Of a stretch of 64,000 nt of DNA, positions 30,001 through 36,000 are shown piece by piece; the first letter of the stretch is position 1, and each line of letters begins with the position of its first letter. The position numbers were made by a program. The DNA comes from Nanobdellota archaeon (lineage in GTDB: Archaea; Aenigmatarchaeota; Aenigmatarchaeia; QMZP01). The stretch lies in contig JBDRJQ010000029.1 in assembly GCA_043814765.1 (NCBI GenBank), positions 96,001 through 160,000 on the forward strand, written 5' to 3'.

Positions 30001-33000
30001 TGTGCCTGGATCAAAGTCAAGAGTACCCCGGAACTTACCTGTCATATATAAATTATTCTCATAAAAATCCATTGAAAATATGAAGTCAGCAGATTCATTT
30101 CCCCAAGTGCAAACCCATTGGAATTCACCTGATGAATTGAACTTGCTGAGAAACACGTCCTGAAATCCGTTAGCGGTTCGCTTGGTTTCTCCTGGACCTG
30201 GATCAAAGTCCACTGTTTTATTGAAATTGCCGCTAACATAGATCTCATCATAGTTTCCGATACTTACGCTTTCGCCGTAATCATCAAGTATTCCAAATCC
30301 CCCACTTCCCCAGGTTCTTGCCCAGAGGAAGTTACTGTTTTGGTCGAACTTGCTCAGGAAGACATCACGATCGCCATTTGAGGTGTGAAAATCCTCGCCA
30401 TTTGTTGGATCAAAGTCAACTGTCCCTTCGAACCATCCTGTGACATAGATGTTTCCTGAACTTTTGTCAACTATTATGTCACCAACACCCTCATATTCTG
30501 TCCCGCCCCATGTTTGCGTCCATTGGAAGTTTCCATCCAAATTGAACTTGGAAAAGAAACAGTCTCTTGCACCATTTGAGGAGTGCTCCTCAATCTCAGG
30601 ACTTGGATCAAAATCGACTGTTCCTGAAAACTGACCACCAAGGTAAACATTGTTTTCAGTGTCAGTTGTAATCCTCCGACCATAATCATCACTGGTTCCG
30701 CCCCAAGTCCTTGCCCAACCGTTCTTGTGTCCAACTTCGATTGTGTGAACCTGCCAAGCATCCACAGCGCCAAAATGTGGGTCAAGTTGGGTATCAGTCA
30801 CTCTGACAAGTAGCGGATATTCGCCGATGGGGACGCCCATCTCATTGACAACTACGCCCTTGTAGATGGCACCGCTGTCAATCGATATTTCGCCGGAGAA
30901 TTCAATTTCAACCTCTCCATTAAACAGCTGGGGGGACTCAATTGTAACCTTGCCTATGCTCGAAAAACCCTGGTGGTCGCGCACCTCAATTTCTATGTAC
31001 GCTTCTGCACCAGCGCTGGTCTCCAGCCCGGCACCGACCTGCACCTGAATCTCATAAGATTCGCTGCAGTTCGCTTTTAGTGGGAAGTCAGTGACGGGAT
31101 TTGTCACCGGCTCTTTTGTGGGCGGAGCCCATGAAGCGTCCACAACATAGCCGAAGTGAATTGGTCCAGCCGGCTTGCGGATGTGCACGGTTCGCGTCTC
31201 GGTACTGCCAACCTGGAACATCCTGCGCTGGTTGTCCTTCCCATAACTTACAAAGGGATTCAGTGTCGCAGACAGGTCATTGGTTCCGCAATACTTGCCC
31301 GAGATATATCCAAGGCACGGTGGAGCTGTTGACGGAAATTGCGTCGGGTTGAACAGTCTTGTGTACCCATCCGCGTTGATGAGTCGTGGAAAATAATCTC
31401 CCCAAGCGATTCTGCAATCGCTCACAGGGAATTCATAATCTTCGTCTGTAATGAATATCCCGCGGACATCAAATCCAGTGTATTTGGTGAGACCAGGAAA
31501 CGGATGCATAATCTGAAGATCAAACACCCAATTATTCGGGTCGATGACCTGGAAGTTCTTGACCTTCAGGCAATTTCCACAGGGGTTGTTCTCAAGCCAT
31601 TGCAATGCATTGAAATGCATCTCTGCACTTCTGACAGGGACGATTTCTGCCTGGCCATCTTCTGAGATTTCTACATCCCAGTAGCCCCAGATGTATTTGT
31701 TGCTATCAACACAAATTGGAGCTGAAAGCTCCTTGCTCTGAGGGCTTGCAGGGTTCTCTAAGCCGCCGGAGCATGAAGCGATGATTAATGCGACCATCGC
31801 TGTAAGAATGAGGTATGTGGTTCTCATTGAGAACCTCCTTAGAACCGGTTACAAGCCGGTTGTATTTTCTATAGAAACAACTATTCATTCTCCAATTGGC
31901 CCGAATTCTCTAGGTTAGCCATGCAAACTGTTAGTCTTGCGTGGAATGTTGAACGGATAGATTGTGTAAGCATAAAATATCTATTAAATAATTAACAAGA
32001 GGTTTAAATACTTTTGTTACTTATTGAGAACAAATAGACTTACAGCTTGATAAAATACCAGAAGTCAGTATAAGTGTATTTTTTCATTTGCTTTTGTGTC
32101 GGATTCTCATTGCAAACAGCAGCGATCTGCCATAGGAATGTGCCTTGCATGAGGATTTTGTTGTAGATAAATGGAGTCATCTGGAAGCTCTGTTTGTCTC
32201 CCATGGGTATGTACATCATGCCAGGCACGATTGCAAACGCGCCTCCCACAAAGGCAATATAATTCTTTGCGCCGTCAACCTTTGTCCAGGTGAATTTTGT
32301 TGTGGGCCCGACCACAGCAAAATTCTCAGGTGTTAGAAGAGTAGGTTTGGTTTGCTTAGTTATCTTCCACTGACTACTGCATTCGACATTATCAGGATAA
32401 TTGCAGACATACCATTTGTATTCGCCATCAGGCTGTATTTCTAGGAAGCTTGAAGGTAGGAATAATGAAGTTTTTTCCTTTGGCAGGAATATGTTTGTCA
32501 TAAAAGGCTCTCCGTCGTGAAGCATGTTCAGATAAACACCCTTTTCTGTGCCAGTGCCTAGCAGCCACTGCAGGGTTATGCTGTCGCATATTTTATAAGA
32601 ATAGTCATGTTTAGGCGAAATCAGTTGGGGAGCGTTAGCTTTGTAGGCATCTACAGGTATGACTACAAGTAAAAAAATTATTCCCATGATTATTGACCAC
32701 GCGAAGATATTTTTCATATGCATGCTCTTTCGGTATTTAAGCGCCAATATCTATTGAAAATTAGTGCAATGTTTTATAAGTTTTCATCCGCTTATCTGCG
32801 TTTCTTTTCCTTTTCTTCCTCTTCTCTTACGCGCTCTTCGACTTCATCCTTGATGCCCAGAGTTTCAACCATTTCCTTGTATCTGTTTCTGATTGTAACT
32901 TCTGTTACGCCGATTGTGTCAGCGACTTCCCTTTGAGTCTTTTTCTCGCCTTCAAGAACTGCTGCTATGTAAAGAGCTGCGGCAGCAACGCCTATTGGTC

Positions 33001-36000
33001 CCTTGCCAGAAGTAACATCAGACTTTGCAGCCCTGTCCAAGACTTCTACAGATTTCACTTGAACCTTTTCTGAAAGATTAAGCAATGAACCGAAACGAGG
33101 GACATAATCCTGTGCTTTTGCAGGCAATATTCTTATGCTCAATTTTCTTGCTATGTACCTGTATGTCTTTCCGATATCTCTTTTATCAATGTTGGAAGCT
33201 TTTGATATCTCGTCCAGAGTTCTTGGAGCGCCCTCTTCACGGCATGTTGTGTAAAGAAGTGCTGCTATAATCGATTCTGTTGATCTGCCACGAACAAGCC
33301 CTTTGTTGACTGCCTGCTGGTATAATTTTGCGACTTTCTCGTGGACAGCTTTTGAAAGATGCAAAAATGAAATAAGTCTTTGTAATTCGGAAAACGCAAA
33401 TGATAAGTTTCTGTCCTTGGATTTAATTAGCCTCTTGTGCCATTTTGTTAAACGATAGTATTGGGCTCTCTTTTTTGAGGTTACTTTAAACAACTCGCCA
33501 CGACCCTTGCCGATTTCTGTGGTTATTCCCTGATCGTGTTTTGTGGGTGTCAAGACAGCGCCTGTTCTAACACGCCTTGATCTCTGATCATCATCAAAAG
33601 CGCGCCACTCCTGTGTCGTGTCTATCATAGATTCGCTTATGACTACCCCGCATACAGAACATGTCATCTCCCCTCTTGCATGGTCATAGGTTATATTCTT
33701 TGATCCGCATTCAGGGCATCTTTGAACTTCTTTCTGAGTTGCTTTTGTCATTAAATCCTCCGATAAATTATTAAAATGTTTTACCATCCTATTGATTTTG
33801 TAAAAGGGGTAATAAGTAATGAGTAAGCCCATTTATAAAGTTAACGGTTGCTTTAAAAGCAACTATTTGCTTTTTTTGGAAACAGCAAGCTTTAAAAATC
33901 ACAGAAGAATATTATTTATTAAGCTATGCTATATAATTTAATATGTTTATTCAGCAAGGGTTTTCGTCATGAATAGTTTATCTGGTACGGTAAGAGTTAG
34001 TGTTGCTGTAATAAGTATTTTTCTTTTTATTGCCCTCGGATTTTTGCTAATAAACATGGTGTCTGCGGATTACGGTGACGGCACCAATACAACATTCCAC
34101 TTTAATGCAACGTATTCTGCTAACGAAACCGGTTATAACATAACCAAGTACAACATCTCGGAAACCATGCAGGTGGTTATATACAACGACGATGATGCTG
34201 CCAACAGCGATCCGGCAACGATAAACACAATAAACGTTTCAGTGGAAAGCATAACTACCGGATGCAACATTAATTTGTATCTTTATGAAACTGGTGTCGA
34301 TACCGGTTACTTCGCAACGAACATAACTTTCAGTACGGCGTCAGGAAGCTGCAGCGCAGCTTCGAGAATACTTGAGGTTATTGAAGACGGAGAAGAGAAC
34401 GTTACCATAGTTTATCTTGATACCAACATGACGGGTTACAATTCAAGCAGTCTTGCTTTCAGAAACACTACGATAGTAAGCGATCAGTGGATAAAGGCAA
34501 ATTATAGTGTAATGAATTTTTCAACAATAGCACCAGGAAGCAGTCTTGTAAAGAACATTGTTTTCAACAACAGCGATCCTGATACTGAAAGCGGCCTTAC
34601 AGAAGCATTTACTCTTTACAAGGAATATGAGAAAAAATATAGCGGGGTTAACGACACTAAATATCTTTATTTCATGCTAACAAATAGGACTGATTATATT
34701 GTTTGGAATGTTACAAGCAACTCTACTGTACCAACTTTCTCTGTTAGATTGTATAACAGTAATGGTGTTCAAGTCAGTTATGGATTAAACAAAACGTACG
34801 ATATAACAATGACTGGAAATTCTTCAGAAGTATGGTATCTGAAAGTTATTAACAATAATACAGCAGCAACTTCTGGTGTAAACATCACTGTTGGCGTCTA
34901 TCTAAATACAACTGATTTCTTGAGCACTAATTTTGTTAGCGGTGCTACAAATTTCACCAATTCAAACACGACCATTAAGATGAATATGACTATACCTGCT
35001 TTGAGAGTGTATGGCGGGTTCCTAAACGGTACAATAAAATACTACAATGATAATTTCACTGTTAATGTTCCTATGATTGTTAAAATTTCTGCAGCAGAGA
35101 TGTGGACAGAAACAAACACTCTTTCACCGCTGTCAGTATGGCCTAACGGCACATATGTGTACAAAGTTAACAAATTTACTGATTCTAAAACTGATAACCT
35201 GAGAACAATAAAAATTTACATAAACAACACAGGCACTCTTGATTTGACAAATGTTTGGGTTAATGTGACAGGAAACTTCACCAACACCAGTAAATACATA
35301 AACATAACATTAATCAACAGTGCACAGAGCAACGGAAACATTACTGAAATAGGCGATTATAACTATATTGCTCTCGGTACAGTACCATCGAATAACAATT
35401 CTTACATCACTCTGACTTTCAACATATCAAATATAGCTAAGGGAGACTATGATACCATCTTATTGTTCAGTTCTGATAACGGACAGCCATTCACAGACTC
35501 TAACATGACACTAAGGCTTAACGTAACAGATGCCTTAACTGTGGTAGTCAATAACATAAACACATATAACTGGGACAATATATCGTCAACAAGTGATCCC
35601 GCTACAACAAGGTTCAGTGGCAATGTTACAGTAGAGATGACAGTAAAATACACAGACGGAACACCAGTAACAACTTTTGATAAAACTAATTTGACTATTT
35701 TTGATGATTACACAGGTGTTTATGTCTCAATGGCAAGCACTTCAATAGGCTCGTTTGTTCATTCCGGTAGTGGGATCTACAAGTTCAACATCACTGCACC
35801 TGCAAGAACTGCTGGTCACGCACAGCATGGCAATCACAATCTAATACTGCAGTTAAAAGATGATTACGTGAACAATGGAAACGCAACTACAACTTATAAT
35901 ATGACAGCACCCGACCCATACACTTCAATGTCTGTAAGTGATAGCAGCTTGAATCTTGCTGTTGTGGAAACAGCTGTTCTGACTGTTACATTTGGAAACA

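Follow-up and report, generated by a model that had tools for sequence, protein, structure and literature searches.

How does an archaeon open its promoters when one of its general initiation factors cannot be found? TFE is a helper that most archaea use for opening promoter DNA. The window analyzed here, a 64-kb stretch of an Aenigmatarchaeota genome (G000; other G-numbers denote genomes compared with it), carries the gene for transcription factor B (TFB). The survey's finding at this locus was that TATA-binding protein (TBP), TFB, the Rpo4/7 stalk, TFS, and Spt4/5 are present, while TFE is missing here and from almost all relatives in the order.

The tfb locus and the search for TFE in its genome

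The tfb product contains TFIIB repeats (PF00382, E 3e-45) and a TFIIB zinc ribbon (PF08271; Table 1), and its nearest relatives are sequences titled Ca. Aenigmatarchaeota. The gene is present in a single copy; no second TFB was found in G000. The start at 33751 is favored, because a GGAGG sits just upstream of it, while the start of an alternative, longer open reading frame, at 33832, overlaps the TATA-like TTTATAAA. The genes for Rpo7 and Spt4 were found on contig C28, that for Rpo4 on contig C8, and that for TFS on contig C3, so that every factor listed by the survey as present was recovered. In other archaea, Spt5 competes with TFE for the clamp, as described in PMC3223566.

Table 1. Transcription-related features of the 64-kb window.
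Feature	Position	Strand	Description
tfb, transcription factor B	32792..33751	-	319 aa: zinc ribbon, reader/linker region, two cyclin repeats
GGAGG, Shine-Dalgarno-like	33757..33761	-	just before the ATG at 33751; read from sequence
TATA-like box TTTATAAA	33832..33839	-	candidate promoter upstream of tfb; read from sequence
tbp, TATA-binding protein	19455..20090	-	PF00352, two repeats, E 1e-61
spt5	56933..57499	-	NGN plus KOW; PF03439, E 6e-18, and PF00467

TFEα was not found in G000, as the survey had stated: the best matches reached E 0.06 with TIGR00373 and E 0.015 with PF02002, and two custom profiles run with filters off gave maxima of 17.7 bits (A3) and 17.4 bits (A5). The top matches to the custom profiles were zinc-ribbon-only or winged-helix-only proteins, and no open reading frame with a winged helix plus a ribbon was found in this genome, in agreement with the earlier observation. 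None of the weak matches to PF02002 or TIGR00373, which we take to be Lrp-, TrmB-, and ArsR-like regulators and Rpo12, has a ribbon located after a winged helix, and they were rejected as TFE. A 90-aa zinc-ribbon open reading frame after RNase Z on contig C27 was checked as a ribbon-only remnant, because Woesearchaeota show the gene order RNase Z-Hjc-TFE; it had no TFE match, a weak match to DUF5817, and Atlas matches to hypothetical proteins only. A small winged-helix family of 87–99 aa among the weak matches was likewise dismissed as a stand-in, being absent from G000.

TFE across the phylum and its few carriers

Full-length TFEα was detected in 5 of 371 genomes of the phylum, the same five with profiles A3 and A5, where the phylum searches scored only the top 6–12 first-look candidates per genome. 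One of these, a canonical TFE in G157, was rejected as native and assigned to a stray contig (identical to a Methanomethylicaceae-named TFE; 58%-complete bin). This leaves native homologues in 4 of 371 genomes, and in 1 of about 91 genomes of the order; the loss reported by the survey for the order is therefore borne out, but its scope is the phylum. Carriers were separated from runners-up by a gap from 69 to 30 bits with A3 and from 118 to 36 bits with A5, and the A3 runners-up that were inspected lacked a zinc ribbon. Among the 98 genomes that were at least 90% complete, G024, G025, and G126 were the only carriers. Filters-off scans covered G000 (88% complete) and G372 (16,700 N, 17 tRNAs), neither of which is closed.

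Regarding sensitivity, the G126 protein, which lay outside the training set, reached 69 bits, and the G264 type reached 57 bits when held out, with one G024/G025 family member kept in the profile. A profile widened with the surviving TFEs and those of Micrarchaeota yielded no further carrier in the 371 genomes. The first profile recovered TFE in 195 of 201 draft genomes of the Woesearchaeota-containing phylum (that of G371); TFE was also found in 3 of 4 Micrarchaeota and 37 of 39 other archaea, in a comparison set without Nanohalarchaeota, Undinarchaeota, Iainarchaeota, Altiarchaeota, and Huberarchaeota. Control searches within the own phylum recovered TBP in 150 of 151 genomes, where complete genomes made up a larger share of the sample, Rpo7 in 29 of 31, and Rpo1′ in 31 of 31. 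Our literature search found no printed report of a phylum-wide loss of TFE in Aenigmatarchaeota.

The native carriers G024, G025, G126, and G264 represent three lineages, placed as three tips nested among non-carriers in the Rpo1′ tree. Their proteins contain a winged helix, a helical linker, and, at the C terminus, a zinc ribbon, in that order, along full-length profile matches, and their best PDB matches are TFE. With TIGR00373 they gave E 3e-14 to 4e-6 (26–53 bits), below the curated cut-off of 149.5 bits. They are strongly divergent, with end branches of 1.4 and PF02002 scores of 22–29 bits. One true homologue scored 24 bits with PF02002, and that of G126 was not among the matches listed at E ≤ 0.001, which bears out the survey's caution that a divergent TFE could evade both models. 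On the other hand, the 259-aa frame that had been recorded as a partial match proved to be the G264 gene, a divergent TFEα homologue of full architecture. Contamination was rejected for this gene, as the composition of its contig agrees with that of the RNA polymerase contigs of the same genome (r 0.88–0.90). The aromatic wing motif GWYxYxW of TFEα, which contacts clamp and DNA, is retained as GW...W in G025 and partly altered in G024 and G264, and the wing is shortened in G126.

In G024 and G025, the genes for TyrRS and SerRS flank the TFE gene, which is on the opposite strand; in G022, G023, and G036, the two are adjacent without it. In G126, it lies just after a tRNA-Leu and before the CysRS gene; G127 has another gene there, and none of five congeners, with CysRS 83–87% identical, has a G126-type gene at this site. 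The TFE-like genes have a lower GC content than their neighbors (40% versus 49–51% in G024/G025; 29% versus 33–34% in G126). Re-acquisition after an early loss is suggested by these empty or differently filled sites in relatives, along with the lower GC, in two of the three lineages; the few remaining genes are probably later acquisitions. No donor lineage was identified, and a viral source was rejected, as viral contigs gave no match for two of the three types. One metagenome contig carries the same TFE-like gene beside a SerRS-like gene.

Polymerase and promoters

In Rpo1′, the clamp head between the CxxC zinc pairs measures 16–34 aa in 35 of 35 Aenigmatarchaeota, compared with 38–50 aa in 30 of 30 genomes of the phylum of G371 and 39–58 aa in 76 of 78 other archaea, the exceptions being one without the second pair and one with a long insert. 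It is short by 15–30 residues across the phylum. Relative to Sulfolobus and Pyrococcus, about 22–24 residues are missing. The four TFE carriers also have short clamp heads (16, 16, 25, and 34), and the TFE-less Thermoplasmata have normal ones (47–50 in 5 of 5); the link between clamp head and TFE is therefore one correlated event rather than a rule.

The clamp coiled-coil tip shared with Spt5 and the hydrophobic patch of Rpo7 (95/98/107) are both retained. In the Rpo7 of G000, the loop S150-R157 is 3 residues shorter than in Thermococcus, and T replaces K152. The lysine that forms a salt bridge with TFE in Thermococcus is present in 30 of 30 genomes of the phylum of G371 and in 3 of 28 TFE-less relatives, samples that differ in diversity (50% identity in Aenigmatarchaeota versus 61%). 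G024 and G025 retain it, and it occurs in just 4 of 27 other TFE-positive archaea. A general decay of the Rpo7 loop upon loss of TFE finds no support in these archaea or in Thermoplasmata, in which the loop is not shortened.

TTWWA peaks 28 nt before the ATG at about five times background, so the canonical TATA spacing is kept. Promoter melt regions are richer in AT than those of the comparison phylum: the AT excess at -12..-2 is 0.094–0.125 in three Aenigmatarchaeota sets versus 0.048, with gene starts called at the first ATG, gene sets that were not matched, and an interval for G000 that overlaps that of the control. Gyrase was rejected as compensation for the missing TFE, since none of 4 Aenigmatarchaeota genomes yielded a gyrA.

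Most likely, TFEα was lost at, or close to, the base of the Aenigmatarchaeota, whose initiation would proceed with TBP, TFB, and RNA polymerase and no factor of the TFE family. Opening by TBP and TFB alone, as the survey proposed, is inferred from the absence of TFE, and an unrelated factor may stand in for it. The short clamp head might ease the loading of double-stranded DNA without a clamp-opening factor, and AT-rich melt regions might open together with the TFB reader/linker; that these two features do the opening is a tentative proposal. More speculative is a scheme in which the polymerase was remodeled, with its clamp head trimmed and the TFE-docking loop of the stalk relaxed, and came to open promoters without TFE, gyrase-made negative supercoils, or a Spt4/5-protecting factor, while a few lineages later gained TFE-like genes, extended at the N terminus, in the role of accessory regulators.

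Alternatives and known systems

TFE might instead persist throughout the phylum, diverged past profile detection, or an unrelated protein might do its job. The strong divergence of the survivors, the non-rejection of a single clade for them by the AU test, and the conserved Rpo7 patch and coiled-coil tip all fit this. However, the widened profile added nothing, close congeners of G126 lack its gene at the CysRS site, and G000 has neither a winged-helix-plus-ribbon frame nor the small winged-helix family; the retained surfaces, moreover, have other known partners (Spt5, RNA). We consider this explanation unlikely. Incomplete assemblies as the sole reason for the missing gene are very unlikely, to the point of being negligible: G000 is 88% complete and the genomes scanned with filters off are not closed, but TBP was recovered almost throughout, the most complete genomes are nearly all without TFE, and drafts of the phylum of G371 readily yield it.

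A degenerate ancestral TFE could also have been lost many times independently, leaving the four carriers as vertical remnants. A single origin of the surviving genes is not rejected by the AU test (p 0.59), and they could be fast-evolving remnants; G024 and G025 retain the Rpo7 lysine, 26 of 80 Woesearchaeota-type loci also have TyrRS close to TFE, and no donor is at hand. Against this, many parallel losses would be required on the Rpo1′ tree, the genes occupy empty or variable sites with lower GC, and the free tree separates the three types, if weakly. We regard such repeated loss as improbable, and prefer a single early loss.

Transcription without TFE is already known from Thermoplasmata, which lack both TFE subunits (PMC4495717, PMC7289017), so the Aenigmatarchaeota would represent a second, more sweeping loss (4 of 371 native). 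Applied to 5 titled Thermoplasmata, the same profile detected no TFE; in their phylum, 19 of 101 genomes gave one. Both groups lack the TFEα gene and retain TBP, TFB, and TATA-type promoters. Aenigmatarchaeota are, however, an independent DPANN lineage with a shortened clamp head, and differ in gyrA from the one Thermoplasmataceae tested, where it was found. As such, the phylum provides a second natural experiment in a different background, gyrase-less in the four genomes tested and with a truncated clamp head, which bears on two-factor promoter opening by an RNA polymerase II-like enzyme. Genomes of one genus that differ in having a TFE-like gene, together with a defined deletion in the clamp head, allow tests on recombinant polymerases.

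Compared with the canonical TBP-TFB-TFEα-RNA polymerase complex of Thermococcus (6KF4/6KF9), as presented in PMC7704642 and PMC3223566, TBP, TFB, stalk, TFS, Spt4/5, coiled-coil tip, and TATA spacing are kept, whereas TFEα and clamp-head residues are missing and the Rpo7 loop is shorter. The genomes of other DPANN (Nanoarchaeum, Woesearchaeota, and Micrarchaeota) are likewise small and encode the same basal machinery, yet they retain TFEα (PMC8204694); genome reduction alone therefore does not account for the loss. According to PMC7289017, DPANN lack TFEβ. In Haloferax, tfeA could not be deleted (PMC5861453), a point against a TFE-less reading. The phylum also bears on how initiation escapes inhibition by Spt4/5, which in Methanocaldococcus is relieved by TFE, according to PMC3223566.

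Basal factors and the search for TFE

The genome to which the window belongs (G000; 859 kb on 39 contigs, 88.2% complete) encodes all the basal factors listed by the survey: TBP, TFB, the Rpo4/7 stalk, TFS, and Spt4/5. The TBP and Spt5 genes lie within the window, and those for Rpo7, Spt4, Rpo4, and TFS on other contigs. The majority of titled records among the 80 best relatives of TFB are Ca. Aenigmatarchaeota (65-91% identity). The large proteins encoded around tfb are probably secreted or surface proteins; one of 825 aa, with repeats and a lipoprotein-like start, gives the impression of being bacterial. 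TBP repeat matches correspond to one TBP gene in G000; many other genomes of its order have two, and seven order-level relatives in family f4 (G270, G272, G273, G275, G278, G279, and G282) have 8-10 matches per genome, or about 4-5 genes.

The survey's finding was that TFE is missing here and in nearly all relatives within the order, a 259-aa frame being dismissed as a partial match. Across 371 genomes of the phylum Aenigmatarchaeota, the public model PF02002 gave one strong match (G157) and many weak winged-helix matches. The strong match has the same sequence as a protein titled Methanomethylicaceae TFE, in a bin that is 58% complete, and was treated as a stray contig. Among the 30 best loci inspected, two of the weak matches, G264 and G025 (the latter at 24 bits), are genuine divergent TFEα, with TFE as the top PDB match for both. 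The G264 protein is the dismissed 259-aa frame, and the survey's caution that divergent TFEs may escape public models was borne out.

An alignment of the TFEα proteins found led to 907 representatives at E ≤ 0.001, the best 150 of which were considered; the first custom profile (A3) comprises 148 sequences, Woesearchaeota-type TFEs among them. Six-frame searches of G000 with filters off yielded no TFEα with A3 (top score 17.7 bits), and neither did a single-scaffold, not closed, 1.05-Mb relative (G372; 16.4 bits at best). Divergent TFEs spiked in as a check reached 57-106 bits after eight rows had been withheld from the profile, which is a clean sensitivity test only for the G264 type, since one member of the G024/G025 family remained in it. 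Full-length A3 matches were found in 5 of the 371 genomes: G157, G025, G024, G264, and G126. The G126 protein, absent from the training set, scored 69 bits and the next match 30 bits; inspection of 25 runner-up loci revealed no zinc ribbon. The same five genomes came out with a second profile, in which divergent and DPANN sequences carried more weight; these phylum-wide searches scored the best 6-12 candidates per genome. G264 is the sole carrier in the order of G000 (families f1-f6, of which f5 is a presumed member; about 91 genomes).

As controls, A3 detected TFE in 195/201 genomes of the phylum containing Woesearchaeota (here the TFE-positive phylum) and in 19/101 genomes of the phylum containing Thermoplasmata, 82 having none. 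Among 50 titled archaea picked from 80, it was detected in Micrarchaeota (3/4), Thermoplasmata (0/5), Aenigmatarchaeota (0/2), and others (37/39). Within Aenigmatarchaeota, TBP was recovered in 150/151, Rpo7 in 29/31, and Rpo1′ in 31/31 genomes, in samples skewed to the more complete ones. It is very likely that the loss of TFE is real and phylum-wide; the reported absence stands for G000 and nearly all relatives, and its restriction to the order does not.

Features of G000 and of related genomes
Feature	Location	Strand	Remarks
tfb (complete TFB)	window 32792-33751	-	sole TFB found in G000
Large protein flanking tfb	window 24483-29204	-	
Large protein flanking tfb	window 29350-31827	-	
Large protein flanking tfb	window 33969-37397	+	
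Four-cysteine zinc-ribbon protein, 90 aa	G000:C27:6884-7207	+	no family assigned; immediately after RNase Z
Two tandem TFE homologues	G631:C12:9836-11009		Thermoplasmata-containing phylum
Sulfur-gene cluster with TFE-like gene	L120:3586-8370 (G264:C34)		neighbours: SufCB-like, metallo-beta-lactamase, SepCysS/SepSecS-like PLP enzyme, ThiF, ThiI
Region upstream of CysRS, next to tRNA genes (genus g109)	L157:9064-10347, L631-L635		gene content differs among congeners; variable cassette site
Rpo2-Rpo1′ single frame	L360 (G126)		
Rpo2-Rpo1′ single frame	L362 (G082)		
Rpo2-Rpo1′ single frame	L366 (G100)		
Rpo2-Rpo1′ single frame	L371 (G061)		
Rpo2-Rpo1′ single frame	L372 (G060)		
Rpo2-Rpo1′ single frame	L373 (G196)		
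Rpo2-Rpo1′ single frame	L376 (G144)		
Rpo2-Rpo1′ single frame	L536 (G125)		

The four surviving TFE-like genes

The proteins of G024, G025, G126, and G264 all have N-terminal extensions of ~90-190 aa. In a FastTree tree of Rpo1′ (46 rows, 811 columns), the carriers form three tips amid non-carriers. In G024/G025, the TFE gene comes between TyrRS and SerRS, which are direct neighbours in G022, G023, and G036; in G015, TopoI lies on the corresponding side of this site. In G126, it directly follows tRNA-Leu and precedes CysRS, a position where none of five congeners has it; in G127, tRNA-Leu and tRNA-Cys flank a different gene. In both cases the GC content of the TFE gene is below that of its neighbours. 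The gene of G264 lies in a sulfur-gene cluster, and its contig is consistent with the rest of that genome. Counting against re-acquisition of these genes after an early phylum-wide loss are the poor resolution of the TFE tree, the lack of any evident donor, and the fact that a single clade for the survivors is not rejected (p-AU 0.59).

A small TFE-like family (L114/L128, L129, L625, P0005-P0007, P0045-P0049, P0088, and P0138; 214-598 aa) shows unusual divergence between congeners. Most members have a long, variable N-terminal extension, which may hold a second helix-turn-helix.

RNA polymerase and promoters

According to PMC7704642, the TFE ribbon docks on Rpo7 (patch Y95/F98/L107, K152, and loop S150-R157), and the wing is lodged between the coiled coil and the head of the clamp. 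Rpo7 of G000 retains the hydrophobic patch; it has T in place of K152 and a loop shorter by 3 residues. The lysine is present in 30/30 sequences of the TFE-positive phylum, 3/28 TFE-less relatives (one partial row left out), and 2/4 carriers, and its column, with one neighbour, shows the greatest conservation loss of 172 columns. As the lysine occurs in just 4/27 other TFE-positive archaea, and no shortening of the loop is seen in Thermoplasmata, this signal is valid within DPANN only.

The coiled-coil tip common to TFE and Spt5 binding is conserved in Aenigmatarchaeota. The two Rpo1′ CxxC pairs are separated by 16-34 residues in 35/35 sequences of the phylum, compared with 38-50 in 30/30 of the TFE-positive phylum and 39-58 in 76/78 other archaea; the absent segment is presumably helical. 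Since all TFE carriers share the short clamp head and Thermoplasmata do not, the feature belongs to the phylum and has coincided with TFE loss a single time.

The TTWWA motif of G000 peaks 28 nt upstream of start codons (41 against a background of 7). Counted over G000, G372, and pooled loci, TATA-to-ATG spacing in Aenigmatarchaeota is most often 28 nt, against 29 nt for the TFE-positive phylum. Many genes seem to be leaderless. A strong A/T at -5 is seen in Aenigmatarchaeota only, and not in the TFE-positive phylum. The AT excess from -12 to -2 is 0.094 in G000, 0.125 in G372, and 0.110 in pooled loci, versus 0.048 in loci of the TFE-positive phylum, with start codons called mechanically and the G000 interval overlapping that of the control. 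The most likely mechanism, we infer, is one in which the shortened clamp head, together with melt regions rich in AT, would compensate for the missing TFE.

In 7/31 sampled genomes, plus G125, Rpo2 (whole or its C-terminal part) and Rpo1′ share a single frame of 1426-1934 aa, uninterrupted by a stop at the junction. The two catalytic subunits thus appear to be fused, with a patchy distribution even inside families.

Comparison with Thermoplasmata and published work

No published report of TFE loss in Aenigmatarchaeota was found in searches of the non-subscription literature, though a 2016 TFE review (PMC7616663) may cover it. The available portions of PMC8407114, PMC13257274, PMC13502027, and bioRxiv 2024.01.05.574147 make no mention of it, and TFE terms are absent from three supplements of PMC7414124; the large data tables of the latter and the bioRxiv supplements may list the absence. 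PMC8204110 has a single sentence on DPANN, and the introduction of PMC8204694 states that N. equitans carries TFE. In published work, TBP and TFB are described as the essential pair of factors (PMC13545438), tfeA could not be deleted (PMC5861453), TFE has a ~5-fold stimulatory effect and relieves inhibition by Spt4/5 (PMC3223566), and Thermoplasmata lack both TFE subunits (PMC4495717, PMC7289017).

The loss in Aenigmatarchaeota is a second instance of the kind known from Thermoplasmata, on a distinct molecular background. gyrA was found in none of four Aenigmatarchaeota genomes searched, and is present in the sole Thermoplasmataceae genome checked.
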